NCBI GenBank assembly: GCA_049522565.1
Contig: JBEKNT010000001.1
Coordinates: forward strand, 677-64,676
Length of the DNA: 64,000 nucleotides
Reading direction: 5' to 3'
Source: Acetobacteraceae bacterium
GTDB lineage: Bacteria > Pseudomonadota > Alphaproteobacteria > Acetobacterales > Acetobacteraceae
Part shown: positions 11,834-51,114 of the stretch, in pieces
Numbering within the stretch: the stretch's first letter is position 1
Layout of the letters: every line of letters begins with the position of its first letter
Notes under the pieces: model-generated
Told to the model about the DNA's origin: nothing
What the model saw: only the letters and a program-made list of their open reading frames with translations
Database searches by the model: none
Program-made: the position numbers and the translations under genes

Positions 11834-11835
11834 AA

Positions 11836-20365: not shown

Positions 20366-20392
20366 GCATGGTGAGCATGGCGGCTGCGCGGG

Positions 20393-23643: not shown

Positions 23644-23646
23644 ATG

Positions 23647-29820: not shown

Positions 29821-32800
29821 ATGGCGTTCCCTTTCCTGATGGCGGCACTGCGCGCGCATGGCGAGCGCCGGCAGCGGCGGTTGGCCGCGAATCGTCGGCA
29901 GGCCGAGGGCCGGCTGGTATTCGAGGCCCTGGAACCGCGAGTATTGCTCAGTGCCGACGCGCTGACCGTCGCCCTGAGCGGCGACGCGGCGCATCCCATG
30001 GCGCACGACGTGGTGGTCGAGGCCGTGTCGCAGGCATTGCCCAATATCGAGAGCGCCACGGTGCAAATGGTCCAGGTGGTGGACCTTGCGGCCAACGACC
30101 AGGTGCTCGCCAGCGCGCCGCTCGGCAGCGTCAGCGGGATCAAGATCACCTCCGGCACCGGCGACACCAGCCTGACCGTCGCTACCGCGTCCTTCGGCAC
30201 AGCCAATGTGCCGGCCATCACCTTCGCCGGCGGCAACGGCAACAACACGCTGGCCGTCACCGGCAGCAAGACCACCGACTGGAACATCACCGGCAACGAT
30301 GCGGGCACCGTCACCGGCAGTGCCGCGATCACCTTCACCGGTGTCGCCAACCTGAGCGGCGGCGCGGAGAACACCAACGTCTTTACGGTCACCCAGGACG
30401 GCGCCCTGACCGGCACGCTGAGCGGCACGCCGGACGGCAGCGCCGGCGGCAACGATTCGCTGGTTTTCAAGAGCGACACCGTCACCAATGCGGCTTTCAC
30501 CGCGGCAGGCCCGCATTCCGGCACGATCGACATGGACGGCTCGGTGTTCACCTATGCCGGGCTGACGCCGATCATTTTTTCCGGCAACGCCAGCAACATC
30601 ACCATCACCGGCACCGCCAACACCGACGACCTCACCCTCGCCGACACCAACGTTGCCGGCCAGCTCGAGGTCGCCAGCCTGAACAATTCGCTGGAGAGCG
30701 TCACCTTCGCCCGCCCCAGCGTCTCGCTGACGGTCGATTTCGGGACGGGCAGTAACGACAGCCTGCAGATCGGCACCGTGCAGCTTGCGGGTGCCAGCCT
30801 GACCGTCGCCGGCGGCAACGGCACCGACAGCATCTCGGTGGATGCCAATGCCTATGTCAGCACGCGGGACACCACCGGGAACGCACTGACCGCCCCCTCG
30901 GTCGGCAATTCCGGCGACCTGAGCCTGAGTGCCGAGACCATCACGGTCAACACCGGCGCCAAGCTCTACGCCAACGCCAATAGCGGGTTCACCTCGGGCG
31001 ACGTCACATTGGACGCCGGCTCCCAGGGCGGCGCCGGCCAGACCGCCGCCGCATCGATCGCCGTGCATGGCGCGCAGATCGTCGGCGGCGATGTCGATCT
31101 CGACTCCGCAGCCGGCGCGACCGCCACGATCACCCAGCAGACCCTGGCAACCCTTTCCCTCGATGCGACGGCGCAGACCGCGATCGACGGTGCCAGCGGC
31201 ATCCTCGCCACGGTCGGCGACGTGCAGATCGACGCCAATGTTGACGTCACCGGCCAGGTGACCGCGAACGCCGCGCCGCTCGGTTCGCTCAACGCCGATG
31301 CCGCGCTCGCGTTGTCGGACGTCACCGCCGATGGCGCCGCGACGGTGAGCGGCACCACCGTGCTCGGCGCAGCGGGCGCCGTGGATGTTCACAGCGGCAA
31401 CACCACCAGCGTCACGACGCTGGCGGACGGCAGCACGGGCGGCGCCACGGCCGTCGGCGGCGCGATCGCCCTCGCCGACGTCTCGACCGGCAGCACGGCG
31501 CAACTCGGCACCGGCGTGAAGGTCGCCGCGACCACGGTCGCGGTCGAGGCCGATTCCGCCGACGTGGTTGGCACCACCGCGAATGCCACTGCCGGGGGCG
31601 CAACCGCCAACGGTGCCGCCGCACAGGCCGCCCTGGCCGGCGCGACAACACCCGACGGCAGCGTGACCGTCGCCGCCGCACTCGCCGCCACCACGCTCAA
31701 GGACACCAACACCGCCACCTCGGACGCCACCACGGTCACGACCACCGGGGGCTTCGACGTAATCGCCGACACCAGCCGGCTGGTGGACACCGGCGCGATA
31801 GCAATCGGCGTCCAGGGCGGTCCCGGCGTCGGCGCCGCCGTCGCATTGAACGCGATCTCGGTCAGCAGCAGCGCGACGCTGGGCGACACATCGACCATCT
31901 ACGGCAACGCCGACGTGGATGTCGGCACGCTGCGCACCGGCGACATCTTCGGCGCCGTCGCGCTGTCGGGCGCCGGCAGCACCGATGTGGGCGTTGCCGG
32001 CGCGCTGGCGGTCAACGCCGTCTCCGACGACGCTTTTGCCGGCATCGCCGCCGCGGCGCAGGTCAGCCTGCCGACCGGCAGCCTGACGGTCGGCGTCGGC
32101 CAGGACGGCGACGCCATCACCGACGCCCTCGCGTTCCTCAACGGCGCGTCGCCGGATCCCGGCGTCGGCGCGTCGGTGGCGATCGCGCCGGTGCATTTCA
32201 GCGCCGAGGCCGGCGTCCAGGCCGGCGCGCAGCTTTCCGTCGGTACCGCGTCATCCGCGACCGAGAGCGACGCCAGCTTCTCGGTGGACGCCCAACGGAC
32301 GATCACCACCGTCGCCGACGGCGGCGTTGCGGACGGCACCGCCACCGCCGCCGCGCTGGCGCTGACCGTGGCCCAGGATGGCGCCTCCGCCGAACTCGAT
32401 GCCGGTGCGGTCGTGACCGTCCAAGGCAACCTCACCCTGACCGCGACCCAGACCAGCGACGTGCACACCTCCGGGTCCGCTGAGGCTGGCGCGACGGCCA
32501 CGGTGGCCGCCTTCGGCATCGTGCTCGACAACACCGATGCGACGACCGCCGCCACGGTGGTCGCGCAGGATGCGGTTTCGCTGACCGCCACGGGGCAGAC
32601 TGCCAGCACCACGCTGGCGACCGCGGGCCCGGTCGGCGCGCAGGACGGCGGACCCAACGCCGCGGCGCTGATCGCGGCGGAACTTGGCTTCATCGGCAAT
32701 CCGCCCGGCGTCACGCTGCCCACACCCGCCACCGCGGATGGCGCCTTCGGCGTCGCCGCCGCGATGGCGCTCGGCGTCGCGATCGGCCGCGTCTCCGCCA

Positions 32801-35800
32801 CCGTGCTGCCGGAGACCGCGTCGAAGGAGGCGATCTCCGCGCAGCAGATCTCGCTCGAGGCGGCCGGTGAGGTCACCGCGACAACGCGTGCGGACGCCTC
32901 ACCGATCGACCTGACCTCCGGCCGAGTCGATGTCGGCGCCGCGCTGGCGCTGCAAACCGGCCAGGCGATCATCGTCGCCGAGGTGGACAGCCCAATTTCC
33001 GCACCGGACATCGCCCTGTTGGCAGAAGCCGCGCCGGGCACCGGCATCACGCCAAACACCGTGGCGGGGCTGTTCACCGTGCAGGCCATCGCCGGGGCCG
33101 GCGAATCCGATGTCGGCGTGGCCGGCGCCATGGCAATCGCCGGCGACGGCATCACCGTCCAGGCATTGCTCGACAGCGCGGCGACATCGACCTCGAGCGG
33201 CGTGGTCGTCCTGGCCGCGGTCGGCGACAGTACGTCCAACGTGGACGCCACCGCTCTGTCGGCGGCCGACGGCGTTGGCGCCGGCGCGTCCTTCTCGCTC
33301 AACGTGTCCGACGCCACCGTCACCGCCGAGATCGAGGACGGCGGCTCCGTCACCGGCACCCCCGGCCTGTTGCTGGGCGCCAATGGCGGGCAGAACGCGA
33401 CCACCACCGCGGAGGGCGGGACGGACGCCGGCACCGCGACCGGCGCGGCCTTCGCTCTTGCGGTGGTCACCGACGAGATCACGGCGGGACTGACGACCAG
33501 GGCAACGGCGGCCGCCGGCACCGCCATCCTGCGGGCAACTGGCGACACCACCGCGACAACCACGACGACCGGCGCCGCCGACGGCCAGTATGCGGCGATC
33601 GGCGCCAGCCTGGCGCTCGGCATCCTGGTGGACGACGTGTCGGCCGACGTGGCCGGCAGGCTGATTGCGACCGGCCCGGTCACCATGACCGCCACCGGCA
33701 CGAACACCCAGACGACAACGGCCGATGCCGGATCGCTCGGCGCCGAGGACGGCAGCCTCAGCGCCGGTGCATTGCTCGCCAACCAGCTTGCCCTGCTCAA
33801 CGACCCGAACGGCATCATCGTGCCCGCGCTGACGACCGGTGCCGGCACCGTGGGCGTCGCGGCGGCGCTCTCCTTCGGCGTCGATGACGCCACGGTTGAG
33901 ACCGACATCTCCGGCAGGGTGTTGACCGAAGGCGATCTGACGATGACCGCCACCGGCGGTACCACCGCGAAGAGCGAAGCGAGCGGCGCGACGGTAGATC
34001 CGAGCCTGGATGGCACCGGCGTTGCCGCCGCGGTGGCCGTGATGGTCGCAACCCCCAAGGTGAGCGCGCGCATCGACGGCGACGCGCTCGCCGCCGATGC
34101 GACGCTGACCGCCAACATGGCGACACCTACCGGGCACGACATCGAGTCCAACGCGGAATCCGGCGCGGGCGATCCCAACACAGGCGTCGCCGGTTCCTTC
34201 GCGTTGACCGTTGCAGCACCTGTCACCGAGGCGGTGATCGGCGGCAGCGGCATCCTCGAAACCCTCCCGGGCGGCAATGTGACGCTGTCCGCCACGGGTG
34301 CCTCGCAGATCGCCGCGGACGCCCGGGCGGAGATCCTTGGGCCGGGCAGGTCCGGCCTGGGAGCCAGCGTCGCGCTCGACATCGCGCTCGACGACACCCA
34401 CGCGATGCTGGACCAGGGCGCCCAGGTGCTGGACGCCAACAACCTCACGCTGACCGCCAAGGGCACTTACGGTTCCGCTGCCCACGCCGAGGCGGGCGAC
34501 CAATCGGGCGGCGCTGCCGGCGCGATTGCGATCAACGTCGCCCCACAGGACACCGAGGCGGAGGCCAATCCGGGGCCCTCGCTGACCCTCACCGGCACCT
34601 TGATGCTGCAAGCGGAGCAGAACCAGGGCAGCATCGCCGATGCGAACGGCGGCTCCAGCGACCGCGGCGGCGGGTTCGGCGCCGCGCTCGCGGTCAACGC
34701 ACCGGTCGCCAGCACCACCGCCCTGCTGGATCGCGGCGCCAATGTTGCCAATGCCATCAACGTTATCGCCGATTCGACCGCCAGCGCCGAGGCGGAGGCC
34801 ACCGCCGGCATTAAAGGCGGCTCCGACGACGGCACCGCGGATGGACTGAGCGCGCAATGGCTCGGCGTGGCCGGAACCGACGGCTCCACGACACCGCCCA
34901 CCATCCCCAGCATCTCGGCGGCGCTGGCCAACGGCGCACAGCAGCTTGGACTGACGCTGCCGGAAGTGGATGCCGCCGCCGCGCTGTCGGTGGACGCCGC
35001 GTTCGGCACGACCAGCGCCAGCATCGCCGGCGGCGACCCGATCATCGCCGGCGGCAACGTCCTGGTGCTGGCGACTGGCGGCAGCACGGCGGACAGCCAG
35101 GCCGATGCCAGCGCCATCACTACCGCCGATGCCGGCGCGGTCGGCTTCGGCTTTGCGGTGGATTTCGACGACCAGGCGCTCGACGCCTCGATCGGCGCAG
35201 GCACCCCGGTCAGCGCGCAGTCGATCACGGTCCAGGCGACGGTGCCGCGCGAGCAAGCGCAGCAGGCCTCGGCGGAGGCGATGTCGGGGGCCGGCGCGTC
35301 CGACGGGATTGCCGGCGCCCTCGCGCTCAGCCTGGTGGATAACAGCACCGAGGCGCAGATTCTGAGTACCGCGCCGATCACCGCCCCGGGTTTCATTGTC
35401 GTCGAGGCGACCGGGGACACCTCCTCGGCGGCGACCGCGGGCGAGGATGTCAACGGCACAGTCGCCGGGACGGGCATCTCGCTCGCCGGGAACCTCATGG
35501 TCGATCACACCGCCGCGAACGTTATCGCGGGGGCCGACCTCAACAGCCTGGGCCAGATCCGCATCGAGGCCGACGGCACGCAGTCGCTGCAAAGCGAGTC
35601 CGCCGGCACGGCAACGGCCGGACTGGGTGCGGTGCCGGCCAGCCTGACGGCGGACGTATTGCTCGCGACGACCGCCGCATCGGTGGGCGACGGCGCCAAG
35701 ATCGATACGGGCATCACCGGCGGTACGGCAACACAGAATTTACTGGTGCTGGCGGATGACTCCACAAGTCTGAACGCGACCGCCGGCAGCCTCGGCGCCG

Positions 35801-38800: not shown

Positions 38801-41800
38801 CGCGAACCAATTACGGGATCAGCGCCGCGGTGTCGCTCAACACGAGCGAAGACGTCGTGTCAGCCGAGATCGGCGACAGCACGGTCACCACGGACAGCGG
38901 CGGCATCCAGGTCGTCGCGGTGGGCACCGGGAACATGAGCTCGCTGGCGGCCGGCGTCGCGCAGGGGAAGAACCTCGCCGGCGGCGTGGGTGCGCCCGTG
39001 GACACGCTCGGCATGCTCATCCTGGCGGACGTGACCAAAGGCAGCGTGTTGACCACCGGTGCGGGCGTTACCGTGACCGCGACCGGCAACGGCACGATCA
39101 TGACGCTGGCGGGTGGGGTCGCGATCGCCCTGAACCAGGTCGGCGTCGGCGCAGCGGTGTCGATCAACAACGCCTCGGACTCGGTCACCGCACAGATCGT
39201 CGGCAGCCAGGTCACCGCCGGCGGGGCGGTGGATGTCGAAGCGCTGTCGGATCCGACGATCGAAGCGCTTGCGTTCGGCTTCGCCTACGCCCCGACCATC
39301 GCGGTCGGCGGGTCGGTTGCGTACAGCTACATCGATGACACGACGACCGCCGAGGTGGACAACAGCGGCAAGACCGGCAGCAAGATCTACGCCGGGGACG
39401 GCGCCATCACGGTGATGGCGACCGATGCGCCGTATATCGAGGTGCTGACCGGCGCCATCGCCGCGAGCAGTGGCGAGGTGGCGGTCGCGGCCTCGGTTTC
39501 GATCAACAATGTGAACGATACGGTGACCGTCGGCGTCAATGACGCCACGCTGACCGCGCCGGTCGGGCCCATCATCGTCCAGGGTGTGGCCAGCCCGAAC
39601 ATCCTGTCCATCGCGGTCGGCGGCAGCGGCGACGAGACCTTCGCCGGTGTCGGCGCGGTGGCGGACGACAATGTCGGCAGCACGATGACGGTGACGGTGG
39701 GCACGGCGACGGCCGTGCTGACGGCGCCGGTGGTGACGGTTGACGGTGCGGACAACTCCAACATCGGATCGGCGGCGTATGGCGTCGCCGGCTCCGGTAC
39801 GGTGTCGATCGCCGGCGCGGTCGCGACCAACACCATCACCGGCGGCATGGTGGTGTCGCTCGACAGCGACGGCGTGATCGACGCGCAGGTGGCCGACGTG
39901 GAAGCGACCAATGCCGCCACCATCGAGGTGATGACGGGCGCCGCCGACGGTGCCGGCACCGCGTCGGGCGGCGCCGCGACCTCGGTCAACGCCATCACCG
40001 ACGACGCCACCAGCCAGGTGGTGGGCGGCAAGATCAACGCCGCGGATACCAGCGTGACCGCCAGCCAGACCGGCACGATCGAGGCGCTGGCGACGATCGG
40101 CAGCGGCGCGGGCACGGCGGACCTCGTCGCGTCGGTTACCACCAACAACATCTACGATGCGGCGACCGCCACCATCAGCAGTGGTGCGGTGATCAATACC
40201 GGCAGCGGCGGGTCTTTGACGCTGTCGTCCACCAATGGCGGCGACATCGAAAGCCTGTCCGGTGCGATCAACGGTGCCGGCGCGGCGGCGATCAACGGCG
40301 CGGTGGCGAACAACAACATCAGCCTGCTGACCAGCACCCCTGGCGGCGCGAACACCACGCTGGAGAATTCCACCGTCACTGGCGGCAGCGCGAATGTCGA
40401 TGCGACCGACAGTGCGACGATCCTGAGCGTCGCCATCTCCGGCGGCGGCGCCAGCACGGCGGCGGTCGGCGGGTCCGTCACCAAGGCGAACGGCAACATC
40501 ACCGCCACGGTCGCGGTCACCAACAACAAGGAGACTCTGACCGGTGCGTTGGACATTGCCGCCAGCGACAGCGGCGACATTACCACCGCGGCGGGCAACG
40601 CCGAGGGCGCCGGCACCTTTGCGGGCGGTGCGGCGATCGCCATCAACACGCTGAACAACAACGTCACCGCCACGCTCACCGGCGGCAACGCCAATGTCGG
40701 TTCGCTGTCGGTGACGGCGACCGCCAATGGCAGCCTGGGCGCGGTCGGCGCGATCGGCGGCGGCGCCGGGACCGTGGCGCTCGACGTGTCCGACACCGAG
40801 AACACCATCACCGGCAGCCTGGCTGCCGCGATCACCGGCGGAGCGGTGGTGACGGCGAATGGCGCCGTGACGGTGGGCGCGACCGATCAGAGCCAGATCG
40901 AATCGCTGTCCGGCGCGGCGGACGGTGCCGGCACGGTCGGCGGCGGCGCCGCCCGCGCGCATAACCGCATCGGCGCGGTCGCCAGCGATCCCATTGCCAG
41001 CGATCCGGGCGACGCCGACCCGGATGAACCGAGCGACGCCACGCCATCGCAGGCTGCCACCACGGCGACGATCGACGACGGATCATTTGTCGAGGGCGAG
41101 AGCGTTGCCGTGACGGCGGCGTTCACCGGCAGCATCGAGACTGCGGCGATTGCCGGCTCCGGCGCCGGGACGGCGGCGATCGCCGGTGCGCTGACCGACA
41201 ACCTGATCGGCGACCAGGTCACCAGCTCGATCTCGGGCGCCAACACCACCGTCTTCGCCGCCGGTGTCGGCCAAGGCCAGATCACGGTCAGCGCGACCGA
41301 TGGCGCGACCATCAAATCGCTCGCCGGCAGCGCGACCGGCGCCGGCGTTGTGGCGGTCGGCGTATCGGCCGCCGTCAACAAGCTGCGCAATGCGGCGGAT
41401 GCGTCGATCGACGCCGCCAATGTCTGGAGCCTGAGCGGCAGCGTCGCGGTGATCGCCAGCGAAAACGGCCTGATCGAATCCATCTCGGTGGCCGGCAGCG
41501 GCGGCGGCGACGTCGCGCTCGACGCCGCGGTCTCGTTGAACGACATCGCCGACGACATCGGCGCGACGGTGGACGACAGCGCGCTGGTGCGTGCGGCGCA
41601 GGACATCACGCTGCACGCCAGTGACGGCGGGACGATCGAATCCAGCGCCGATGGGCTCGCCATCAGCGGCGGGTTCTCCGGCGCCGGCGCGGTCGCGACC
41701 AACGAAATCGGCGACCAGATCACCGCCGGCGTCACCGATGCGACGCTGCGTGCGATCGACGATTCCGTCTTTATCCTCACCGACGACTCAGCCGGGATCG

Positions 41801-44800
41801 AGAATTTCTCGTTCGCCGCCGGCGCCGGCAGCATCGGGCTGACCGCGACGGTCTCGGTGAACGAGATCGACAACGTGCTGATGGCGGAGATCGACGCCAG
41901 CACGGTGACCGCCGGCAACGACGTCGCCCTCGATTCGACCGATAACAGCAGCATCGGCTCGATCGCGAGCCAGTTCTCCTTTGGCGTGCTGGTCGGCGCG
42001 GGCGGTGCCGCCGCCTACAACCAGATCGAGAACAGTGTCGGCGCGACGATCGACGACGGCTCGGTGGTCACCGCTTCGAGTGGCGACGTGCTGGTGGAGG
42101 CACAGGAACAGGCGACCATCCAGACGCTGGCGGCGGGCGCCGCCGGCGGTACCGTCGGCATCGGCGGTTCCGTTTCGGTCAGCATCATTGCCAACACGGT
42201 GGACGCCACGATCGCGAATGCGACCGTCACCGCCGCCGGCAATGTGGGGATCATCGCCGACGACCAGGATACCATCGACGCCTATGGCGGCGAATTGGCC
42301 GGCGGCTTTGTCGGCGCCGCCGGGTCGGTCGCCGTGGTGACGCTGGAGAGCCAGATCACCGCGTCCGTCGAGAACGCCACCGTCGCGGCCCGGGGCATCA
42401 CGCCGGCGCTGATCATGCCCGACATCGACCAGACCACGGGCGCGGCGGTGAACGGCAGCGCCGGTGGCGTCGTTGTCGCGGCGCGCGATCTGGAGAACGC
42501 CAAGGTCATTGCCGTGACCGGGGCGGGCGGTCTGGGTGCCATCGCCGGGACGGTCAGCGACGTGCACACCGCCACGGTGACGGATGCGCATATCACCGGC
42601 TCGCAGATCAACAGCGCGAGCAAGCCGGGCAGCGGCGTGACCGTACACGCCTCGCAGGCGACGATCGTCACCACGACACTGGGGGCGATTGCCGGCGGCT
42701 TCGTCGCGGTGGGTGGCGCGGTTCAGGTCACCACCATCGACAACCGCACCCAGGCCTATATCGCCGACCAGGTTACCGGCCGCGAGACTCCCGGCACCGC
42801 CACCGCGGTCTATGCCAACACGATCAACGTCTCGACCGCCACCTACGAAAATGTCAGCCCGACCACGGTCGGCGTCACGGTCGGGGCCGTCGCGATCAGC
42901 GGCTCGGTTGCCTACACCAATATCGCCAGCAGCAGCGACGCCTTCGTGCGCGACGCGCTGTTGCAGGCGAAGAACGGCGCCGCCAGCATTACGGTCGCGG
43001 CCGAAGACAACGCGTCGATCGGCACTTTCGCCGGCGACGTCTCGGCGGGCTTCGTCGGCGCCGGCGCGGCGGTCGCGGTCAGCGAGATTGGCGACACGAC
43101 GCTCGCCACGCTCGAGGGCGCACGGCTCGACGCCAACGGGGCGATCACGGTCAGCGCCAGTTCGACCGGCAACATCACCGATGTCGCGGCCGGTGCCGCG
43201 GGCGGGGCGGTCGGCATCGCCGGCGCGGTGCTGGTGGACAGCATCAGCACGGAAACCGAGGCAGCCACGGAGTCTTACGGCGGCGCGGCGACCCTGATCA
43301 ACCAGGACCCGGGCTTTGCCGGCACTCCGGGCCGCGATGGCGGCAGCTTGCAATCCGTCACCATCGAGGCGACCGGCAACGAGACGCTCGACGGGACGGC
43401 GGGCGCGGCGGCGATTGGCCTCGGTGCGGCCGGGGCCGGCATCCAGGTCGGCTCTATCGCCGACCTTGTGGCCGCCAATGTCGAGGGCGGTACCGTGATC
43501 ACCGCGGCCGGGAACGTCTCGGTCACCGCCAAGGACCAGCGCAATGCGAGCAGTGACGCGATTGCGGTTGCCGGCGGGCTGCTGGCGCTGAGCGGGGCAT
43601 TCTCGATCATCACCATCGGCGGCGCGTTCGATCCGAGCTCGGTTGCGCAGGTCAATGCCGGCGACACCGGCAGCGGCCCGACCAATGACCAGCAGCTCGT
43701 GTCGAACGCGAACAGCAGCATCGACGAGGAGCCGGCCGCCAGCGGGATCAGCACGAACCAGCAGACCACGGCCGAGGGGCCGTCGGCCACGGTCGCGCAG
43801 AACGCGGTGGGCAAGCTCAACCAGCCGGCGCCGACGGTGGGCGACAACTTGTTCGCCACGCCGACCAACGTGTCGGGCACCTTCGCGACGGTGGATTCGA
43901 CCGGCAGCGGCGGCGCGCCCCGCATCACCGCGGGCGGCAACATCGCGATCTCGGCCAGCGACGGCTTCTCCCTGAACGTCAGCGACGGATCGGGCGGCGG
44001 CGGCTTGGTCAGCCTGGGCCTGAGCGTCGGGCTGGCGACGGTCACCGACACCACCACGGCATCGGCGACCGGCGGCGCAGTACTGGCGGCGGGCGGCGAT
44101 ATCACGGTGGATGCCAACGATGCCTCGTCGTCGCTCAGCGGCGTGGGCGTGACGACCGGCAGCGTCGGCGCGATCGCGGTCGGCGGTGCCGTCGGGGATG
44201 CCACGCTGAACCTGGATGTAACGGCGGAGCTGGGGCCGGACGTGACGGTGACACGCGCCGCCGGCGTGGACATCAACACCACCCAGACCGCGAACCTGGC
44301 GGCGAACGGCTTCGACATCGCCGGCGGCCTCGCCGCGCTCGGCGATGTCACCACCAGCACCACGATCGGCGGCACGGTGGTAGCGGAAGTCGGCCAGGGC
44401 AGCGATCTGGGCAGCGCGGCGACACCGATCGGCACGCTGACCATCGCCGCCAGCGGCAGCGATATCGGCACGGCCAGCACCACGGCGGGATCGGGCGGTG
44501 TGGTCGCGGGCGAGAGCAACAGCGCGGATGCCACGGTCAACCCGGATTTCTCTGCGGTGCTGGACAGTGACACCACGAGCGATGTCGCCGGTTCGGTCGC
44601 CATCGTCGTGCAGACCAGTGGCGTGGCGACCACCTCGGCCGAGGGCGTCACCATCGGCGCCGGGGCGATCGGTTTGTCCGATGCGGAGGCGACGCTGGCG
44701 ATCGGCGACTCGGCGAGGATCGGCGACGACGCGATGCTGACCGCCGGCGGCAACGTGACCATCAGCGCGGAGCATACGACGACGGCAGACCCGTTGGGGC

Positions 44801-47800
44801 AGCCGAACGGGAGCGGCGTGACCGCGACCGCGGATTCCTCCGGTGGCGGGGCGATCTCGGGGAACGGTGCGACGGCGGGAGCCTACGACAACAGCACGGT
44901 GGCCGCGCGGGTCGGCGAGGGCTCGACCGTGGATGCCGGCGGCACGCTGGCCATTCTGGCCACCGTATCGAACAGCGCGCAGGCGAATACCAACACGCTG
45001 TCGATTGGGGTGGTCGCGATCGGCGGACAGACCGCGACGGCGAATACCGAGGGTCAGGCGACGGCGGCGCTGGGCAACGGCACCACCGTGCGCGCCTTCG
45101 GACTGGAGGTGGAAGGCGCGGCCAACGACGCCTCGGATGCGACCAGCATCGCGGCGGCGGGCGGCATCTTCGGTACTACGGTCGGTGCCGAGGCCGATAC
45201 CGACGCCTCGCCCAAGGTGACGGCGAGCATCGGCTCCAACGCCAATGTCGCTGTGCTGAGCACGGTCGATGTCCTGGCGATCGCCGAGCCGTTCACCAAT
45301 GGCCTGGCGCAGGGCTCCACCGTTTCGGGCTTCTATGCAGGCGGCTCAAGCAACGCCAACAGCTCCGGCACGCCGGACGTGGAGGCCGAGATCGAGCAAG
45401 ACAGCGTCGTCAAGGCCGGCGGGGGCGTGCAGATCCTGGCGGAGGTGCCGACGATCGGCGAGATTTCCAACGGCACGTTCGACGCGTCCAACGGGACGGT
45501 CGTCAGCCTGGCCAACAACGAGTTCTACCTCGTCTCGCCGACGCTGCTGCAAACCGGCGACCAGGTGGTTTACGAGACCGATGGCGGGAAGCCGATCGGC
45601 GGCCTGACCGACGGCCGCACCTACAGCGTGATCAACGACGGCAACGGCATCAGCCTGGGGCAGACCTTCACCGGCGCGCAGGTGAATGCGGCGACCGGCA
45701 CCATCCAGTTCGCCGCGCCGGACGGGTTCATGACCGGCGACAAGGTGGTTTACAGCGCGAACGGCGGCACGCCGATCGGCGGCCTGGTCAGCGGCGAGAC
45801 CTACTATGTGCGGGTCATCAACCCCACCACCATCAAGCTGGCGACCAGCCTGGCGGAGGCGGAACAGGTCGGTGAAAGCTTCAACCCCACGCTGATCACC
45901 GGCGGCAACCTGATCACCCTGGCCAATAACGGCTTCACCAATGGCGAGGCGGTGACCTATCGCAGCACCGGCGCTGGGGTCGCCGGGCTGGTCAACGGCG
46001 ACACCTATTTCGTGCAGCGGGTGAACGCGAACCAGTTCCGGCTGTCGGCGCTGCCCAATGGTCCGGCGCTGTCGATCAGCCCGGGCTTCTTCACCGGTGG
46101 CCAGACGCTGGGCGCCGAGGGTGTGGCGATCGACGGCGCCGGCATCACCTCGCCGCAGAGCCTGACCTTCGACCTCACCTCGCTCGGCACCGGCGTCCAG
46201 CGACTGGCGGGCGTCGGCGGTGCGGCGGCGCTGCTGCCGTTCACGCCGAACGATACCTATGATGCCACCGCCAATGCATCGGGCGGCGCACTGGTCGGCA
46301 ATGTCGGCAGCCAGACGGATACCACGATCAACGGCACGACCACGGCGGTGATCGGCTCGAACACCACGGTGCAGAGCGGCGGCGAACTCACGATCAGCGT
46401 CACGGCGCAACGCCCCAGCACTGCGGTGGCGTCCGGGATTGGCGCCGGGCTTGTGGGCCTAGGCTCCGGCAGCGTGACGACCAACGACACCGAGAACACC
46501 AGCATCACGGTGGGGGACGGCTCCAGCCTCGTTGCCGGCCAGGATGTGATGATCGACGTCGATGGCGGTGTGGACGCCAACGCCTCCTCGCAATCGAATG
46601 GCGGGGGCGCGGTCAAAGTCGCCACCTCGAACACGACGGTCACTGTCGATCCGACGACCGGTATCTTCGTCGGTCAGGGTGCGCGCATCACTGCGGCGTT
46701 CCAGGTGACGCTGGGCGCACAAGGCGAAGTCGGCGGCCTGGACCAGGCAAGTTCCGGCGGTTTCGGTTTCTTCGCCTCCGACTCCGATTCCTACACCACG
46801 GTGACGATCGGTGCGCCAGTCAATGACGGGACCGATCCGGCGGTGCTGAGCGTCCAGATCGGGGACGGCGCCAACCTGTCCGGCGGCAACATCCTGCTGA
46901 TTGCCAGCTACGACGGGCTGAACCCGCAAGTCGACACGTACGCCGACGCCACCGGCGGCACGGTGTACCCGACCGCCATATCCAGCCTGAACATGGCAAC
47001 CAACGCGCTGGTCGATGTCGGCGCCGGCGCCATCCTGAGCGCGGCCAACCAGGTAACCTTGCTGACGAACTATGGCGCCGGCGGAACGTATACCCTGAGC
47101 GCGGTAACCGACCGGACGGCCGTGGTCGGCCACCAGGATGCCGGCGTGGGCGACTTCCAGCAGCTTGCCTCCAACATCGACGTCGAGGATGGCGCCGTCA
47201 TCACGGCGCATAATCTCCAGGCCTCTGCCACGATCGGCGCGTCGGAACCGAACATCGAGGCGCTGGAGGGCGGCTACAACGGTGACGAGCAGCCAGATAA
47301 CATCCAGCAGAGCGCTACGGAAATCCGCAACATCGTGTTCGATGGCGAGGCGGTGCTGACGGCCGGGCCGAGTCCCGTGCTGGTGGTGAACGAGTTCGGC
47401 CAGATCGCCTACGAGTACGGGGTCACGGCGTCGGTCTCGGGCGGCAATATCGTGGTCAACCCGATCACCGACACCAGCCCTGGCGTCGCCACCTTCAGCT
47501 CCGATGAGGGCTCGCAGTGGATGGCCAGCGGGAACGGCGTCGAGGGCATGCAGGAAGGCTCCGTCATCAGCGGCACGGAGGGCAGCATCACCTTCGTGGA
47601 TACCTTCCCGTCGGTGACGCTGGACAACGGCTCGGCGCTGAACATGGTGGTGAACGGCATCGATCCGGTGCTGCGCACGCCGGGTGCCGCGGTCAACGTC
47701 CAGCTCGACGATACCTCGCTGTTCAGTTTCACCCTGGCCAACGTGTTCCGGCCGACCACGATCACCGTCGCCAATACCGCGCCCACGGGCATCGGCAATC

Positions 47801-49029
47801 TGACGCTGACCGGCGATATCGAGGATCCGATCGGTGCGATCAGCCTGAGCGCCGCCGGCGGCAACATCGTGGCGTCGGGCAACGCGGAGCTGGTGCGGGG
47901 CGCGTCGGTTACCCTGGATGCCGGCGGCAACATCGGCACAGCGGCGCAACGGCTGACCGTGGATGTGGTGGACAGTCCGCAGGCCGGGATCACGCTGAAC
48001 GCCAGTGCCGGCGGCGACCTGAACCTCGCGGTGCAAGCGCGGCTGCGCGATCCGTCGGCCTTCATCTTCACGCCGACGCTGGGCGACCTTGTCGCGGGCG
48101 GCAGCATCAACCTCGATCTGTTGCAGCCGGTGCGCGACAACACGGTTGTGGGGCCGGAATACAAGGTCACGGTCTACGACCAGTCGCCGACCTACGGACT
48201 TTTGACGACCACGCACAACGAGAACGCCTGGCCGAACGACGTTGGCGGGCCGCAGCCGCTGCCGCCCGGCGTCTTCGCCACCGGGAGCACGCCGTACGCC
48301 GCGACCTACTCGATCGGCCTGCTGGAAGCGGGTGGCAGCATCAGCGTGATCGACCCGGGCTCGACCCCCATCGGGCTGGCCGCGAAGGTCGAGTTGTTCA
48401 CCGCGGGCGGCAGCATCAGCGCGACGATGAGCGGCGACATCACGCTGACCGAGACCACCGGCAACCTGCGCGTCGGCAAGATCGACTCGACGGGCGGCAG
48501 TGTGACGCTGACCGCGCTGGCCGGCAGCATCGTCGGCCCGGCACCCGGGGGCGCCGGGCAGCCGGCAAGTGTGATCGGCGACAATATCGCACTGACGGCG
48601 GCACAGGGCAGCATCGGCAGCCTGAACGACGCGCTGAATATCCAGTTGCTCGGGGGCAAGCTGGACGCGCTCGCGCGGAACGGCATCAACATCTACGACG
48701 TCTCGGGCGCCTTGCCGATCGACTCAGTCGCGGCCGGCGGCGCGGTACTGATTGGGACTGCGGGGGGGAACATCCTGGTGGCGCCCGGCGCCGCCGGCCC
48801 GGAGGTGGTGGGCCAGACGGTCGCGCTGACCGCCAAGGGTGGCATCGGCATCACGGGGAACCCGCTGGTCGTGCAGTCCGCCGCCCCGAACGGGGTCACG
48901 AGCAACGCAACCGGCCGCACCTACATCGACGAGGTCGAGGGCGTGGTGCTGCACGAGGCCGGGTTGACCTGGACGCTGGGTGACGGCGGCACCAGCGCCG
49001 GCAGAGTGAATTGGGCGAGCCTGCTTTGA
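29821..49029 (+). CDS. Giant (6402 aa) extracellular repeat protein with N-terminal LEPR-XLL-type motif; LktA-like filamentous-adhesin-type Ala/Gly/Thr/Val repeats
   Basis: Single uninterrupted 19,209-nt ORF. N-terminus is MAFPFLMAALRAHGERRQRRLAANRRQAEGRLVFEALEPRVLLSAD, with LEPRVLLSAD at 29929-29958. Recurring units of about 45-50 aa, e.g. AAGAAGGTVGIGGSVSVSIIANTVDATIANATVTAAGNVGIIADDQDTIDAYGG. Codon usage and GC3 are consistent with neighbouring genes. Confidence 0.93.
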   Translation: MAFPFLMAALRAHGERRQRRLAANRRQAEGRLVFEALEPRVLLSADALTVALSGDAAHPMAHDVVVEAVSQALPNIESATVQMVQVVDLAANDQVLASAPLGSVSGIKITSGTGDTSLTVATASFGTANVPAITFAGGNGNNTLAVTGSKTTDWNITGNDAGTVTGSAAITFTGVANLSGGAENTNVFTVTQDGALTGTLSGTPDGSAGGNDSLVFKSDTVTNAAFTAAGPHSGTIDMDGSVFTYAGLTPIIFSGNASNITITGTANTDDLTLADTNVAGQLEVASLNNSLESVTFARPSVSLTVDFGTGSNDSLQIGTVQLAGASLTVAGGNGTDSISVDANAYVSTRDTTGNALTAPSVGNSGDLSLSAETITVNTGAKLYANANSGFTSGDVTLDAGSQGGAGQTAAASIAVHGAQIVGGDVDLDSAAGATATITQQTLATLSLDATAQTAIDGASGILATVGDVQIDANVDVTGQVTANAAPLGSLNADAALALSDVTADGAATVSGTTVLGAAGAVDVHSGNTTSVTTLADGSTGGATAVGGAIALADVSTGSTAQLGTGVKVAATTVAVEADSADVVGTTANATAGGATANGAAAQAALAGATTPDGSVTVAAALAATTLKDTNTATSDATTVTTTGGFDVIADTSRLVDTGAIAIGVQGGPGVGAAVALNAISVSSSATLGDTSTIYGNADVDVGTLRTGDIFGAVALSGAGSTDVGVAGALAVNAVSDDAFAGIAAAAQVSLPTGSLTVGVGQDGDAITDALAFLNGASPDPGVGASVAIAPVHFSAEAGVQAGAQLSVGTASSATESDASFSVDAQRTITTVADGGVADGTATAAALALTVAQDGASAELDAGAVVTVQGNLTLTATQTSDVHTSGSAEAGATATVAAFGIVLDNTDATTAATVVAQDAVSLTATGQTASTTLATAGPVGAQDGGPNAAALIAAELGFIGNPPGVTLPTPATADGAFGVAAAMALGVAIGRVSATVLPETASKEAISAQQISLEAAGEVTATTRADASPIDLTSGRVDVGAALALQTGQAIIVAEVDSPISAPDIALLAEAAPGTGITPNTVAGLFTVQAIAGAGESDVGVAGAMAIAGDGITVQALLDSAATSTSSGVVVLAAVGDSTSNVDATALSAADGVGAGASFSLNVSDATVTAEIEDGGSVTGTPGLLLGANGGQNATTTAEGGTDAGTATGAAFALAVVTDEITAGLTTRATAAAGTAILRATGDTTATTTTTGAADGQYAAIGASLALGILVDDVSADVAGRLIATGPVTMTATGTNTQTTTADAGSLGAEDGSLSAGALLANQLALLNDPNGIIVPALTTGAGTVGVAAALSFGVDDATVETDISGRVLTEGDLTMTATGGTTAKSEASGATVDPSLDGTGVAAAVAVMVATPKVSARIDGDALAADATLTANMATPTGHDIESNAESGAGDPNTGVAGSFALTVAAPVTEAVIGGSGILETLPGGNVTLSATGASQIAADARAEILGPGRSGLGASVALDIALDDTHAMLDQGAQVLDANNLTLTAKGTYGSAAHAEAGDQSGGAAGAIAINVAPQDTEAEANPGPSLTLTGTLMLQAEQNQGSIADANGGSSDRGGGFGAALAVNAPVASTTALLDRGANVANAINVIADSTASAEAEATAGIKGGSDDGTADGLSAQWLGVAGTDGSTTPPTIPSISAALANGAQQLGLTLPEVDAAAALSVDAAFGTTSASIAGGDPIIAGGNVLVLATGGSTADSQADASAITTADAGAVGFGFAVDFDDQALDASIGAGTPVSAQSITVQATVPREQAQQASAEAMSGAGASDGIAGALALSLVDNSTEAQILSTAPITAPGFIVVEATGDTSSAATAGEDVNGTVAGTGISLAGNLMVDHTAANVIAGADLNSLGQIRIEADGTQSLQSESAGTATAGLGAVPASLTADVLLATTAASVGDGAKIDTGITGGTATQNLLVLADDSTSLNATAGSLGAGALAGAGAAAQFSDLLKQTTADMDGTVQVAGSVEVEAQSKEAGFTAADAGAMAAGVSVAGGAGVQMGDLLTHAAIDGDAHVRAVGDVVVTALDTTQMDVFAGAVNAAVAASAGAGIGAIGLMKTTEALIENNAVVDAEGEGAGTQVANGFTISFVPGSSIPGEVAKPFLPSALTDIFGILLNNPLHNLISPVGSIPSDDFSSQDRVATPTFTTVHGVAVTALSHDDLALQATGLGASDVAGLELSASGVVDNATTRAEIGAGALVDQSGLPSSTSQSVLVFADGDTQAMVIAGTDSISGLLAVGPAAALLAIDPDTIAFIGAGAKVSAIDDLTVQAVGTDDLLTDATDVVASDLSVAGSVDALVLGGETYAYVDANATVIAGGSVSIVANETSQSENVAGALSDGTSGPVAVGASAGISLVATDTEAWIASDAHVTALGLETDQVPGIETDPTSATDFTVIEGVSVLATTNDLVMDLVANGSAGGFAAFIGSGAGVVIGNTTAAYIGTGAVVHAGAFGLNGLPLANATPATVSVGAVDNTHSFDGIASVVDGDLAISGAADAGVMRDATSATIDAGATIKASGDVDVAAWSTEVVDSFVGGLGLTSGGIELNVSASVYSIGAVAGSDLLDPLSVVGGPGSLESYLDGLLQGMVAQAGQGIVGILNQYAAGVGGQQAAATQLAALTPNDPVTGALTASNLGKIGTLANIDDAKVTAYGNVGVTAVDAVTPDLDTSFTFSYSFGSNDQNLNLSLDGGLLAGRANATASITGGSDVTATDNVAVQSQASTTQTVNSTYAFNSSSDNSSALVDDSRLTAGGDVTVNAQMNGYNKYSGILPGINGLKIRTSYNNEQNTTIASVTGHSVIDADGTVTVNAFSTSEDHTIADGATLLDQGFEGSFTLGVALAWNQIGDTTSATITDSNALAASVAVTATADTEDFTVALGIGDGDNNSVSLGGSGAENLMNDIVSASIEGATVLAPGGVSVLSTDDESLTAITGAAVARTNYGISAAVSLNTSEDVVSAEIGDSTVTTDSGGIQVVAVGTGNMSSLAAGVAQGKNLAGGVGAPVDTLGMLILADVTKGSVLTTGAGVTVTATGNGTIMTLAGGVAIALNQVGVGAAVSINNASDSVTAQIVGSQVTAGGAVDVEALSDPTIEALAFGFAYAPTIAVGGSVAYSYIDDTTTAEVDNSGKTGSKIYAGDGAITVMATDAPYIEVLTGAIAASSGEVAVAASVSINNVNDTVTVGVNDATLTAPVGPIIVQGVASPNILSIAVGGSGDETFAGVGAVADDNVGSTMTVTVGTATAVLTAPVVTVDGADNSNIGSAAYGVAGSGTVSIAGAVATNTITGGMVVSLDSDGVIDAQVADVEATNAATIEVMTGAADGAGTASGGAATSVNAITDDATSQVVGGKINAADTSVTASQTGTIEALATIGSGAGTADLVASVTTNNIYDAATATISSGAVINTGSGGSLTLSSTNGGDIESLSGAINGAGAAAINGAVANNNISLLTSTPGGANTTLENSTVTGGSANVDATDSATILSVAISGGGASTAAVGGSVTKANGNITATVAVTNNKETLTGALDIAASDSGDITTAAGNAEGAGTFAGGAAIAINTLNNNVTATLTGGNANVGSLSVTATANGSLGAVGAIGGGAGTVALDVSDTENTITGSLAAAITGGAVVTANGAVTVGATDQSQIESLSGAADGAGTVGGGAARAHNRIGAVASDPIASDPGDADPDEPSDATPSQAATTATIDDGSFVEGESVAVTAAFTGSIETAAIAGSGAGTAAIAGALTDNLIGDQVTSSISGANTTVFAAGVGQGQITVSATDGATIKSLAGSATGAGVVAVGVSAAVNKLRNAADASIDAANVWSLSGSVAVIASENGLIESISVAGSGGGDVALDAAVSLNDIADDIGATVDDSALVRAAQDITLHASDGGTIESSADGLAISGGFSGAGAVATNEIGDQITAGVTDATLRAIDDSVFILTDDSAGIENFSFAAGAGSIGLTATVSVNEIDNVLMAEIDASTVTAGNDVALDSTDNSSIGSIASQFSFGVLVGAGGAAAYNQIENSVGATIDDGSVVTASSGDVLVEAQEQATIQTLAAGAAGGTVGIGGSVSVSIIANTVDATIANATVTAAGNVGIIADDQDTIDAYGGELAGGFVGAAGSVAVVTLESQITASVENATVAARGITPALIMPDIDQTTGAAVNGSAGGVVVAARDLENAKVIAVTGAGGLGAIAGTVSDVHTATVTDAHITGSQINSASKPGSGVTVHASQATIVTTTLGAIAGGFVAVGGAVQVTTIDNRTQAYIADQVTGRETPGTATAVYANTINVSTATYENVSPTTVGVTVGAVAISGSVAYTNIASSSDAFVRDALLQAKNGAASITVAAEDNASIGTFAGDVSAGFVGAGAAVAVSEIGDTTLATLEGARLDANGAITVSASSTGNITDVAAGAAGGAVGIAGAVLVDSISTETEAATESYGGAATLINQDPGFAGTPGRDGGSLQSVTIEATGNETLDGTAGAAAIGLGAAGAGIQVGSIADLVAANVEGGTVITAAGNVSVTAKDQRNASSDAIAVAGGLLALSGAFSIITIGGAFDPSSVAQVNAGDTGSGPTNDQQLVSNANSSIDEEPAASGISTNQQTTAEGPSATVAQNAVGKLNQPAPTVGDNLFATPTNVSGTFATVDSTGSGGAPRITAGGNIAISASDGFSLNVSDGSGGGGLVSLGLSVGLATVTDTTTASATGGAVLAAGGDITVDANDASSSLSGVGVTTGSVGAIAVGGAVGDATLNLDVTAELGPDVTVTRAAGVDINTTQTANLAANGFDIAGGLAALGDVTTSTTIGGTVVAEVGQGSDLGSAATPIGTLTIAASGSDIGTASTTAGSGGVVAGESNSADATVNPDFSAVLDSDTTSDVAGSVAIVVQTSGVATTSAEGVTIGAGAIGLSDAEATLAIGDSARIGDDAMLTAGGNVTISAEHTTTADPLGQPNGSGVTATADSSGGGAISGNGATAGAYDNSTVAARVGEGSTVDAGGTLAILATVSNSAQANTNTLSIGVVAIGGQTATANTEGQATAALGNGTTVRAFGLEVEGAANDASDATSIAAAGGIFGTTVGAEADTDASPKVTASIGSNANVAVLSTVDVLAIAEPFTNGLAQGSTVSGFYAGGSSNANSSGTPDVEAEIEQDSVVKAGGGVQILAEVPTIGEISNGTFDASNGTVVSLANNEFYLVSPTLLQTGDQVVYETDGGKPIGGLTDGRTYSVINDGNGISLGQTFTGAQVNAATGTIQFAAPDGFMTGDKVVYSANGGTPIGGLVSGETYYVRVINPTTIKLATSLAEAEQVGESFNPTLITGGNLITLANNGFTNGEAVTYRSTGAGVAGLVNGDTYFVQRVNANQFRLSALPNGPALSISPGFFTGGQTLGAEGVAIDGAGITSPQSLTFDLTSLGTGVQRLAGVGGAAALLPFTPNDTYDATANASGGALVGNVGSQTDTTINGTTTAVIGSNTTVQSGGELTISVTAQRPSTAVASGIGAGLVGLGSGSVTTNDTENTSITVGDGSSLVAGQDVMIDVDGGVDANASSQSNGGGAVKVATSNTTVTVDPTTGIFVGQGARITAAFQVTLGAQGEVGGLDQASSGGFGFFASDSDSYTTVTIGAPVNDGTDPAVLSVQIGDGANLSGGNILLIASYDGLNPQVDTYADATGGTVYPTAISSLNMATNALVDVGAGAILSAANQVTLLTNYGAGGTYTLSAVTDRTAVVGHQDAGVGDFQQLASNIDVEDGAVITAHNLQASATIGASEPNIEALEGGYNGDEQPDNIQQSATEIRNIVFDGEAVLTAGPSPVLVVNEFGQIAYEYGVTASVSGGNIVVNPITDTSPGVATFSSDEGSQWMASGNGVEGMQEGSVISGTEGSITFVDTFPSVTLDNGSALNMVVNGIDPVLRTPGAAVNVQLDDTSLFSFTLANVFRPTTITVANTAPTGIGNLTLTGDIEDPIGAISLSAAGGNIVASGNAELVRGASVTLDAGGNIGTAAQRLTVDVVDSPQAGITLNASAGGDLNLAVQARLRDPSAFIFTPTLGDLVAGGSINLDLLQPVRDNTVVGPEYKVTVYDQSPTYGLLTTTHNENAWPNDVGGPQPLPPGVFATGSTPYAATYSIGLLEAGGSISVIDPGSTPIGLAAKVELFTAGGSISATMSGDITLTETTGNLRVGKIDSTGGSVTLTALAGSIVGPAPGGAGQPASVIGDNIALTAAQGSIGSLNDALNIQLLGGKLDALARNGINIYDVSGALPIDSVAAGGAVLIGTAGGNILVAPGAAGPEVVGQTVALTAKGGIGITGNPLVVQSAAPNGVTSNATGRTYIDEVEGVVLHEAGLTWTLGDGGTSAGRVNWASLL

Positions 49030-51002: not shown

Positions 51003-51015
51003 CGGTAGGGAAGAT

Positions 51016-51078: not shown

Positions 51079-51114
51079 GACTTGCCTTTCTGCCCCGATG
51101 CCGGGCTCCCTCTG

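Follow-up and report, generated by a model that had tools for sequence, protein, structure and literature searches.

In the 64,000-nucleotide stretch of contig JBEKNT010000001.1 from an Acetobacteraceae bacterium (assembly GCA_049522565.1) that was analysed here as a whole and is called the window below, the gene at positions 29821-49029 of the plus strand codes for a giant repetitive protein of the LEPR-XLL type. It is preceded by a gene for a SapC-family protein and followed by a cassette of genes for a GAF-HlyD protein, an M50 metalloprotease-HlyD fusion, a short SecA-like ATPase and a third HlyD-type adaptor. Here we show the gene content of this locus, the domain architecture of its products and their conserved linkage in other genomes. 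The giant, SapC and the cassette very probably represent one functional unit, and we lean towards regarding this unit as an envelope exporter resembling a type I secretion system (T1SS), with a SecA-type motor and a leader-binding protease in the place of the ATP-binding cassette (ABC) transporter. The giant, as the proposed cargo, would be an extracellular or surface-located all-beta repeat fibre of the adhesin or matrix type.

The giant protein and its leader

The giant gene consists of 6402 codons, with an ATG start and a lone terminal stop in the plus-strand translation of 29821-49029. Its G+C content at third codon positions (GC3) of 0.89 matches the coding signature of the window, which has about 68% GC. 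Giants of nearly equal length occupy the same position in two related loci, one of 6399 amino acids (aa) on a metagenome contig (L171) that shares 77% identity with the window in its SecA-like gene, and one of 6391 aa in a metagenome-assembled genome (MAG) of the Stellaceae with a 57% identical SecA-like gene (L172); the best matches come from MAGs of Acetobacteraceae. Because of the GC3 value and these orthologues, we conclude that the open reading frame (ORF) is coding and not an accident of GC-rich DNA, which confirms that the gene is real and conserved in length. Many long ORFs, of up to 995 aa, run antisense within the gene; these are artefacts of its GC-rich repeats. The AT skew is positive (+0.08 to +0.17) over positions 30001-48000, spanning the giant gene, and negative in most other parts of the window, a shift that results from the extreme codon and amino-acid bias of the gene. 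An earlier reading of this stretch from its letters alone, referred to here as the original prediction, had correctly reported an uninterrupted ORF and its N-terminus with the motif LEPRVLLSAD, which corresponds to residues 37-46 in the translation (nucleotides 29929-29958).

The protein is composed mainly of A (17.4%), G (14.0%), T (11.6%), V (9.7%), S (8.8%), D (6.8%), I (5.5%) and N (4.9%), and these eight residues, already recognised by eye as dominating the body, together make up about 79% of the sequence. It is acidic and free of cysteine, with 613 D+E versus 122 K+R residues and Cys = 0. The NCBIfam model LEPR-8K (NF012209) matches at residues 32-52 with 32.9 bits versus a cut-off of 17, and LktA_tand_53 (NF012206) matches in 13 + 16 stretches with 116 and 251 bits versus a cut-off of 50. 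The giant is thus a new member of two families already named by NCBI, the same LEPR-XLL and LktA-family adhesin names which the original prediction had given. Its length of 6402 aa also fits the pattern of LEPR-XLL domains, which stand at the start of proteins of several thousand residues. Searching the whole protein against Pfam at E ≤ 0.1 returned no family and hence no HemolysinCabind, Haemagg_act or autotransporter domain, and a single strict RTX nonapeptide was counted versus 0.25 expected from shuffling, which does not amount to an RTX repeat. Of the features of two-partner secretion (TPS) exoproteins, we found neither a Haemagg_act domain nor a POTRA/ShlB-type neighbour nor a conserved hydrophobic core in the leader, and no Pfam family for a C-terminal beta-barrel translocator matched either the last 900 aa or the whole giant. 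Profile searches and motif counts therefore gave the same result as the earlier scan by eye, which had seen no RTX, TPS or autotransporter signals in this protein.

The first 46 residues (29821-29958, plus strand) contain the pentapeptide MAFPF, a basic spacer and then RLVFEALEPRVLLSAD. Judged from alignments, this N-terminus appears as a conserved bipartite leader of the form M[A/S]xPF, basic spacer, hxF[D/E]xLEPRxLL[N/S]AD, and not as an inverted Sec signal. Relatives from Alpha- and Deltaproteobacteria and Nitrospira share it, and those encoded beside the cassette in Mesorhizobium, Aminobacter, Devosia, Deltaproteobacteria and Nitrospira start with MAFPF(K/R)SEG, followed by a basic spacer of variable length and RLIFDPLEPRLLLNAD. 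Relatives do not share the hydrophobic run LMAAL of the window protein (protein P0124, for example, has MAFSPLGSGPRTP), while MAFPF is conserved. The original prediction had taken the order of a hydrophobic followed by a basic stretch as a reversal of the classical Sec signal; this view is weakened because the hydrophobic stretch is specific to the lineage of the window, the conserved part being MAFPF plus LEPRxLL.

A profile of the leader region was searched against 1.84 billion representative proteins and gave 2868 matches at E ≤ 0.001, of which 297 reached E ≤ 1e-30; an internal repeat of the first domain accounts for some of these matches. About 75 of the 138 new best matches carry hxF[D/E]xLEPRxLL[N/S]AD at residues 20-70, many of them beginning with M[A/S]xPF, and proteins with the same leader reach 7804 aa. 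In an AlphaFold2 (AF2) model of the N-terminus built on 41 relatives, residues 1-46 are of low confidence and lack beta structure; the basic part is modelled as a helix, and no order is seen at LEPR. A confidently predicted beta domain starts at residue 48 (per-residue model confidence, pLDDT, 87-97), which places the leader outside the fold; this N-terminal beta-rich domain covers residues ~47-200 (29959-30420, plus strand), is aligned over the same 41 relatives and gave no match at E ≤ 0.001 in a fold search of the PDB. The leader is common to otherwise unrelated giants adjacent to the cassette, the C-termini of which are dissimilar. Word-indexed homologue searches with the N-terminus returned short fragments only, many from frameshift-prone assemblies, and were used for context look-ups. 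In the closest metagenomic relative of the N-terminus found (88% identity; L090, 3629-8466), only about 950 aa of ORF follow before GAF-HlyD-like sequence begins, which means that the paralogue is far shorter or that its repeats collapsed during assembly.

The body of the giant is made of tandem units of about 53 aa at residues 617-5529 (31669-46407, plus strand). An iterated hidden Markov model (HMM) of the unit located 51 copies with a modal spacing of 52-55 aa; the tandem recurrence had thus been seen correctly by eye, while the period of 45-50 aa assigned to it was too short. An AF2 model of residues 3845-4216 (41353-42468), based on a shallow pseudo-alignment of ten other non-overlapping segments from within the window, consists of strands only, up to about 35 residues long, with a pLDDT of 83. 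A fold search of the PDB with this model returned no match at E ≤ 0.001, and the TM-scores, including those to solved beta-helices, were at most 0.18. Of the beta-helix expected in the original prediction, the all-beta character is borne out by the model and a significant match to solved beta-helices is not; the repeat fold may differ from a classical three-faced beta-helix. Beyond the repeats follow about 870 aa (46408-49026, plus strand) without a recognised Pfam domain, which are conserved in close relatives only (68% identity to L004, 41% to L005). A shared C-terminal signal uniting the cassette-adjacent giants was considered and rejected, as their C-termini are unrelated. No profile exists for the uncleaved C-terminal T1SS signal, and it was the C-termini compared with one another that proved unrelated.

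The cassette and its linkage to LEPR-XLL genes

All genes of the cluster around the giant lie on the plus strand. The gene upstream of the giant (28947-29759, likely start at ATG 29010) codes for a SapC-family protein (Pfam SapC, E 5.3e-61). Downstream, the GAF-HlyD gene (49134-51002) codes for a protein with a cytoplasmic N-terminal region containing a GAF domain, one transmembrane segment and a periplasmic HlyD or membrane fusion protein (MFP) domain (Pfam GAF, HlyD_3, HlyD_D23); its start was set by alignment of orthologues, and the transmembrane segment lies at residues ~396-414 as numbered on the translation from 49011. The next gene (51115-53346) encodes a fusion of a PqqD-like RiPP recognition element (RRE; RiPPs are ribosomally synthesised and post-translationally modified peptides), an M50 intramembrane metalloprotease and an HlyD domain (Pfam Peptidase_M50, HlyD_3; PqqD), with the RRE core at 51247-51336, the motif HEFGH at 51742-51756 and NPLLRFDG at 52030-52053 of the same strand. 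PqqD (PF05402) was detected in 18 of 18 M50-HlyD orthologues as the N-terminal domain of about 130 aa, with a best E-value of 8.8e-9, and the window protein scored 3.7e-4 and 21.2 bits, just below the gathering score of 23.4. The sole match of the RRE profile in the PDB was a weak one to PqqD (E 0.45). Both active-site motifs, HExxH and NPxxxxDG, are intact and invariant in a three-sequence alignment of the window, Methylobacterium and Syntrophaceae proteins. Among curated families, daptide_HExxH (NF041824; 156.9 bits versus a cut-off of 300) comes nearest, and the protein is related to it without being an equivalog. Judged by its domains, this combination of an RRE with an intact M50 protease is the architecture that would be expected of a leader-recognising and leader-removing enzyme, the role that the original prediction had suggested as possible for the downstream cassette.

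The SecA-like ATPase (53339-55378, plus strand) has 679 aa and comprises the first nucleotide-binding domain (NBD1), the preprotein cross-linking domain (PPXD), NBD2 and the start of the scaffold helix. Its Pfam matches are SecA_DEAD (1.2e-89), SecA_PP_bind (1.8e-16) and P-loop_SecA, and it retains Walker A (53735-53758), DEAD (54101-54118), TNMAGRGTD, the arginine-finger motif GRxxRQGDPG and the preprotein cross-linking domain. It aligns with residues 23-589 only of the about 841 residues of Bacillus subtilis SecA and ends in the first scaffold helix; because the alignment ends at residue 589, the protein has no wing domain, two-helix finger or C-terminal tail. The protein scores below every NCBIfam cut-off for SecA or SecA2, the best value being 496 bits versus 814, and its homologues form a tight family of 620-690 aa with at least 48% identity across phyla. 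Members of this uncurated family are variously labelled as 'SecA', 'DEAD/DEAH box helicase' or 'prepilin peptidase' (the latter two, e.g., P0027, P0044 and P0060). The last gene of the cassette (55375-56265, plus strand) codes for a periplasmic adaptor of the HlyD/RND_mfp type with an N-terminal transmembrane segment or signal anchor (NCBIfam RND_mfp, 138 bits versus 94.9). Start-stop overlaps join the M50-HlyD, SecA-like and third HlyD genes, with ATGA at the SecA-like/HlyD junction, indicating translational coupling. A T1SS-type feature of the locus is the presence of three HlyD-domain proteins, encoded at 49134-56265 beside the giant gene. Searching the PDB by sequence with SapC, M50-HlyD and a DUF3467 profile gave no useful match.

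A genome scan with an alignment of M50-HlyD matched 389 species-level genomes, from which the best 80 loci were fetched. The order GAF-HlyD, M50-HlyD, SecA-like, HlyD is held in these best 80 of the 389, and the cassette ranges over Alpha-, Gamma- and Deltaproteobacteria, Nitrospira, Planctomycetota and others. In loci of the window's class, termed class B, there is no DUF3467 gene anywhere in the locus. The giant ORF stops directly 5' of GAF-HlyD in L005, L051, L059, L064, L065 and L067, where it runs off the locus edge, and about 2.5 kb away in L021; a shorter open-ended ORF is present at this position in L010, and frameshifted fragments of the window's giant in L004. In Nitrospira lenta, a complete protein of 792 aa with the N-terminus LESLENRVLLSA takes the place of the giant. 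TolC/OEP genes adjoin the cassette in eight loci (L043, L049, L053, L072, L074, L076, L079 and L081), and a gene for an OmpA-like barrel protein does so in twelve.

Starting from the cassette, genes with the LEPR leader were found within 10 kb in L006, L009, L011, L012, L014, L024, L045, L057, L060, L072 and L076, in at least four arrangements; the LEPR gene directly follows the cassette in L057 and L060 and is divergent in L076. SapC lies inside or beside the cassette in L005, L010, L044, L064, L071 and L075, and no other gene stands next to the leader-encoding end as often; the original prediction had not included SapC. The reverse test started from LEPR N-termini which had been found without reference to the cassette. 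Among seven context look-ups, the cassette was present in four and SapC immediately upstream in five. We further evaluated 80 metagenome loci that had been selected by the LEPR motif and verified by comparison with the N-terminal 260 aa of the window protein, in a view that covered the start of the giant and no more than 10 kb upstream of it. SapC was located just upstream in 28 of them (27 of 67 when counting those with 1.2 kb or more upstream), core cassette genes were in view in 14, and 45 showed at least one gene of the system. The chance expectation was estimated at less than one locus in 80, assuming one cassette per genome (20 kb of about 4.5 Mb). Because the view ended in the start of the giant, downstream cassettes like that of the window are invisible in these loci. 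The association of LEPR genes with SecA-like/M50-HlyD cassettes, for which the original prediction had asked for a genome-wide test, is therefore present in both directions. The arrangements comprise SapC-giant-cassette, cassette-SapC-giant, giant-SapC-cassette and divergent operons, and these differences point to selection on proximity rather than to common ancestry of one layout. The linkage is strong, and we do not claim that it is universal.

Further genes of the window

Upstream of the cluster, metabolic genes fill positions 1-19000, followed by four glycosyltransferase genes (19196-25196, plus strand; Pfam). Two of the latter match Mannosyl_trans3 (PF11051, 4.5e-33) and Anp1 (PF03452, 3.5e-49), families best known from fungal mannan synthesis and unusual in a bacterium. 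The next gene (25570-26448, plus strand) codes for a PEP-CTERM-like protein of 292 aa, built mainly from GPIGSNL(G/R) and SPAPxPSPSG repeats and with a weak tail match (TIGR02595, 19.6 bits), and it is followed by a gene for a PrsT-like tetratricopeptide-repeat (TPR) protein (26424-27755, plus strand; TIGR02917, E 5.4e-30, below the cut-off). This gene pair at 25570-27755 suggests that the giant gene borders on a locus of the exopolysaccharide or PEP-CTERM type. A 2OG-Fe(II) oxygenase of the prolyl-hydroxylase type (27756-28544, plus strand; Pfam 2OG-FeII_Oxy_3, E 3.6e-13) is a possible accessory or modifying enzyme of the locus, to which we assign it by adjacency alone.

On the 3' side of the cassette, the window contains a TRAP transporter and sulfate-activation genes (57196-60047, plus strand; Pfam) for a CysD-like (PAPS_reduct) and a CysN/CysC-like (GTP_EFTU + APS_kinase) protein. 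A gene for a TPR-sulfotransferase is located near the related LEPR locus L089. The fibre or a polysaccharide associated with it could thus be sulfated. Scans for promoters and terminators around the locus were uninformative.

Proposed export route, alternatives and significance

In the machine that we propose, the cargo gene would be flanked by SapC upstream and by GAF-HlyD, RRE-M50-HlyD, the short SecA-type ATPase and the third HlyD downstream. The PqqD-type domain of M50-HlyD would bind the leader (MAFPF ... LVFEALEPRVLLSAD) in the cytoplasm, possibly with the help of SapC. The SecA-like motor with its preprotein clamp would then spend ATP on feeding the unfolded, Cys-free chain into an inner-membrane conduit, for which the transmembrane bundle of M50-HlyD and SecYEG are candidates. 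The M50 metalloprotease would cut off the leader near LLSAD, and the three HlyD-family adaptors would span the periplasm to a TolC-type outer-membrane channel encoded outside the window.

Several points weigh against this model. That the leader is bound and cleaved, that the chain is exported, and in which direction and by which route it moves, are points that we infer; no inner-membrane channel protein was identified in the cassette, and no TolC gene is present within the window. In eight of the 15 LEPR loci that extend 8 kb or more upstream, no gene of the system was seen there, and the linkage counts, drawn from LEPR proteins related to the N-terminal domain of the window protein, ignore kinship. 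RTX repeats, the hallmark of C-terminus-first, ABC-dependent T1SS substrates, occur in the cassette-linked LEPR proteins of L072, L076, L067, L131, L133, L161 and L164; of the 80 metagenome LEPR loci, 18 have them. Finally, 58 of 82 loci constitute a class A, in which a small DUF3467 gene lies directly 5' of GAF-HlyD, often together with genes for a methyltransferase, a Trp-halogenase-like protein, a conserved protein of about 290 aa without a Pfam family and a radical-SAM enzyme. Because DUF3467 rather than a giant is encoded upstream in most cassettes, the cassette may serve another substrate too.

The DUF3467 proteins have 95-125 aa with the core ANVVNVQ.TREEV.L.FG.N.TW...RIILSP.AAKRL (L001, 5603-5890; L002, 5335-5679; and 56 other loci) and also occur as the N-terminal domain of proteins of about 370-700 aa (L002, L043, L053). 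Their mean column identity is 44% over the whole length and across phyla, and such a conservation pattern suggests that they may act as chaperone or adaptor. An HMM built from the 58 proteins and searched against the six-frame ORFs, as well as tblastn, detected no DUF3467-like domain in the window or fused to the C-terminus of the giant. In class A loci of the Rhizobiales type, the tailoring operon ends with SapC, followed by the gene with the LEPR leader. This set of tailoring genes, SapC and LEPR gene recurs in L001 (21-5306), L006, L009, L011, L083, L085, L087, L093-L100, L148 and others, and a gene for an OmpA-like/OMP_b-brl protein of about 400 aa is located between the tailoring operon and DUF3467 in L006, L008, L009, L011, L012, L014, L017, L024, L045, L083, L087, L088 and L100; the loci with a TolC-family gene beside the cassette instead belong to other lineages. 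The window does not contain the tailoring set and has the 2OG-Fe(II) oxygenase instead. Taken together, SapC, the halogenase-like protein and the 2OG-oxygenase are reminiscent of the genes beside those for TonB-dependent receptors in Xanthomonas and Caulobacter.

One alternative starts from these class A loci and assumes that the true substrate of the cassette is small, either the DUF3467 protein or a RiPP-like peptide made by the tailoring enzymes, and that the LEPR giants are merely co-located as scaffold or target. The position of DUF3467 directly 5' of GAF-HlyD in most loci fits this idea, as do the frequent RiPP-type tailoring genes and the combination of an RRE with an HExxH membrane protease, a RiPP hallmark for which the top NCBIfam match is a daptide protease. 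It accounts for class A, but not for class B: in the window and in L004, L005/L172, L171, L051, L059, L064, L065 and L067, the cassette stands beside a giant in a locus without DUF3467. Moreover, DUF3467 is conserved along its whole length, unlike RiPP precursors, and therefore has more the appearance of a chaperone or adaptor. The Rhizobiales-type tailoring operon closes with the LEPR gene, directly behind SapC, which makes the LEPR protein the likelier target of the enzymes. We therefore consider a small substrate very unlikely. The SecA-like protein might instead be an accessory ATPase of the SecA2 type which feeds the giant to the housekeeping SecYEG, with the HlyD proteins and the protease acting later in the periplasm in a two-step process. 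Its clear SecA homology with intact motor and PPXD, the glycosyltransferase genes upstream in the window and the precedent of Gram-positive bacteria, where dedicated SecA paralogues serve giant adhesins with unusual leaders, speak for this scheme. It is weakened by the absence of wing domain, two-helix finger and C-terminal tail, the very parts of canonical SecA that contact SecY, and further by a leader without a conserved hydrophobic core for the gating of SecY, by a locus without SecY2 or Asp genes, and by the position of the RRE at the N-terminus ahead of the membrane domain, as cytoplasmic leader capture would have it. On balance, such a two-step process is highly improbable.

The remaining alternative deserves more weight, even though we regard it as unlikely: an ABC-HlyD-TolC T1SS encoded elsewhere would export the giant C-terminus-first, and the cassette would act as a module for N-terminal processing, retention or release, by a logic analogous to that of LapD/LapG and LapA. 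On this view, the N-terminus would stay attached to the inner membrane through the leader until released by M50 cleavage, and the GAF domain borne by one of the adaptors would provide regulatory input. The giant is as acidic and Cys-free as T1SS substrates are, and RTX repeats are present in several cassette-linked LEPR proteins. A LEPR-XLL giant of Vibrio carries C-terminal RTX and serralysin domains (PMC10868602), and SapC is part of the sapCDEF T1SS operon of Campylobacter fetus (10.64898/2026.03.19.712371). The statement in the original prediction that T1SS-type features are missing is consequently valid for the window protein and not for LEPR proteins as a class, some cassette-linked members of which have RTX repeats. 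Against a T1SS elsewhere stand the lack of RTX repeats in the window giant and the near-absence of ABC exporters from the surroundings of cassette and LEPR genes in about 170 loci. ABC-transporter ORFs occurred in 1 of 89 loci in one set and in 3 of 87 in another, and the only ABC gene of the window (2337-4199) is of the ABC-F type and lies about 25 kb from the cluster, leaving the window without a T1SS-type ABC transporter. A release module would also have no use for a conserved SecA-type translocation ATPase that carries a preprotein clamp, or for three membrane fusion proteins. The C-termini of cassette-adjacent giants are unrelated, which likewise argues against this alternative, though T1SS signals are poorly conserved anyway.

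The preferred model of a SecA-driven, leader-dependent exporter shares features with several known systems. With the T1SS for giant adhesins and S-layer proteins (LapA/LapEBC, SiiE/SiiCDF, C. fetus SapA/SapCDEF) it has in common a giant, acidic, Cys-free and repetitive cargo, HlyD genes beside the cargo gene, a SapC-family gene, TolC in eight related loci and RTX repeats in some related cargos. It differs from them by a SecA-family ATPase in place of ABC transporters, ORFs for which are essentially absent, by three different HlyD proteins, two of which are fused to cytoplasmic GAF or RRE-M50 modules, and by a shared signal that is N-terminal, with a window cargo that lacks RTX repeats. The accessory Sec systems of Gram-positive bacteria (SecA2/SecY2, Asp1-5, Gtfs) likewise combine a dedicated SecA paralogue with a neighbouring giant adhesin-like cargo that has an atypical long leader, and with glycosyltransferase genes nearby. 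In contrast to these, neither the window nor the conserved cassette contains SecY2 or Asp genes, the SecA paralogue is truncated after NBD2 and falls below the SecA2 cut-offs, and the envelope is Gram-negative, with HlyD adaptors, TolC and a leader-binding metalloprotease. The fusion of an RRE to an HExxH membrane protease, with leader removal coupled to export through MFPs, resembles the leader-dependent exporters of RiPPs and bacteriocins, whereas the presumed substrate of 6402 aa, the fusion of the protease to HlyD and a SecA-like partner rather than an ABC ATPase do not. Judged by gene and domain content, the system lacks some defining features of T1SS, of accessory Sec and of RiPP/bacteriocin exporters alike. 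Its cargo recalls TPS proteins (FhaB/CdiA) and autotransporters as a very long beta-repeat fibre rich in Ala, Gly, Thr and Val, but unlike substrates of type V secretion it has no TPS domain, Sec signal peptide, TpsB neighbour or C-terminal barrel.

Two reports on giant proteins come closest. Giants of Omnitrophota and Actinobacteriota contain embedded SecA_DEAD/PPXD modules without scaffold and wing, for which the authors suggest a role in export (West-Roberts et al., 10.1101/2023.11.21.568195). The cassette likewise associates a truncated SecA motor without scaffold and wing with giants; there, however, the SecA domain is part of the giant and found by loci resembling type II secretion systems, while here it is a separate protein of about 660 aa in a fixed operon with a LEPR-XLL cargo. 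In Chlorochromatium, the giants Cag_663 and Cag_665 have LEPRxLL N-termini, SapC and TolC neighbours and no known transport signals, and a horizontally acquired secA is co-expressed with LEPR giants (10.64898/2026.03.19.712371). The window shares with them a LEPR-XLL giant preceded by sapC and without a known transport signal; by its description, that study differs in proposing a sap-like, C-terminus-first T1SS and reports no SecA-like/M50-HlyD cassette. In the limited literature searched, we found no paper on the cassette, on its link to LEPR-XLL proteins or on a set of SecA-like, HlyD and M50 or DUF3467 proteins. None of this literature gives an export route of LEPR-XLL giants, which the original prediction had likewise described as not established.

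Taken more widely, LEPR-XLL giants could be the substrates of an unrecognised secretion pathway of diderm bacteria, found in at least about 390 species of several phyla, in which RRE-M50-HlyD would capture the leader, a truncated SecA-type ATPase would stand in for the ABC transporter, three HlyD proteins would lead to TolC or another outer-membrane protein, and SapC, with or without DUF3467, would serve as chaperone or adaptor. To this general statement we give tentative credence, a little short of an even chance. The proteins of the cassette are not recognised as such by NCBI models, and the system described here is the first concrete and testable candidate for the export of LEPR-XLL giants. 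If the model is true, it represents a new secretion architecture that joins a Sec-family motor, an MFP/TolC tunnel and RiPP-style leader recognition, and it would account for the recurrent truncated SecA modules associated with giants in other phyla. It would also provide a portable pair of leader and exporter for secreting very large repetitive proteins. The linkage makes the question of export experimentally addressable in culturable strains of Methylobacterium, Methylorubrum, Mesorhizobium and Aminobacter.

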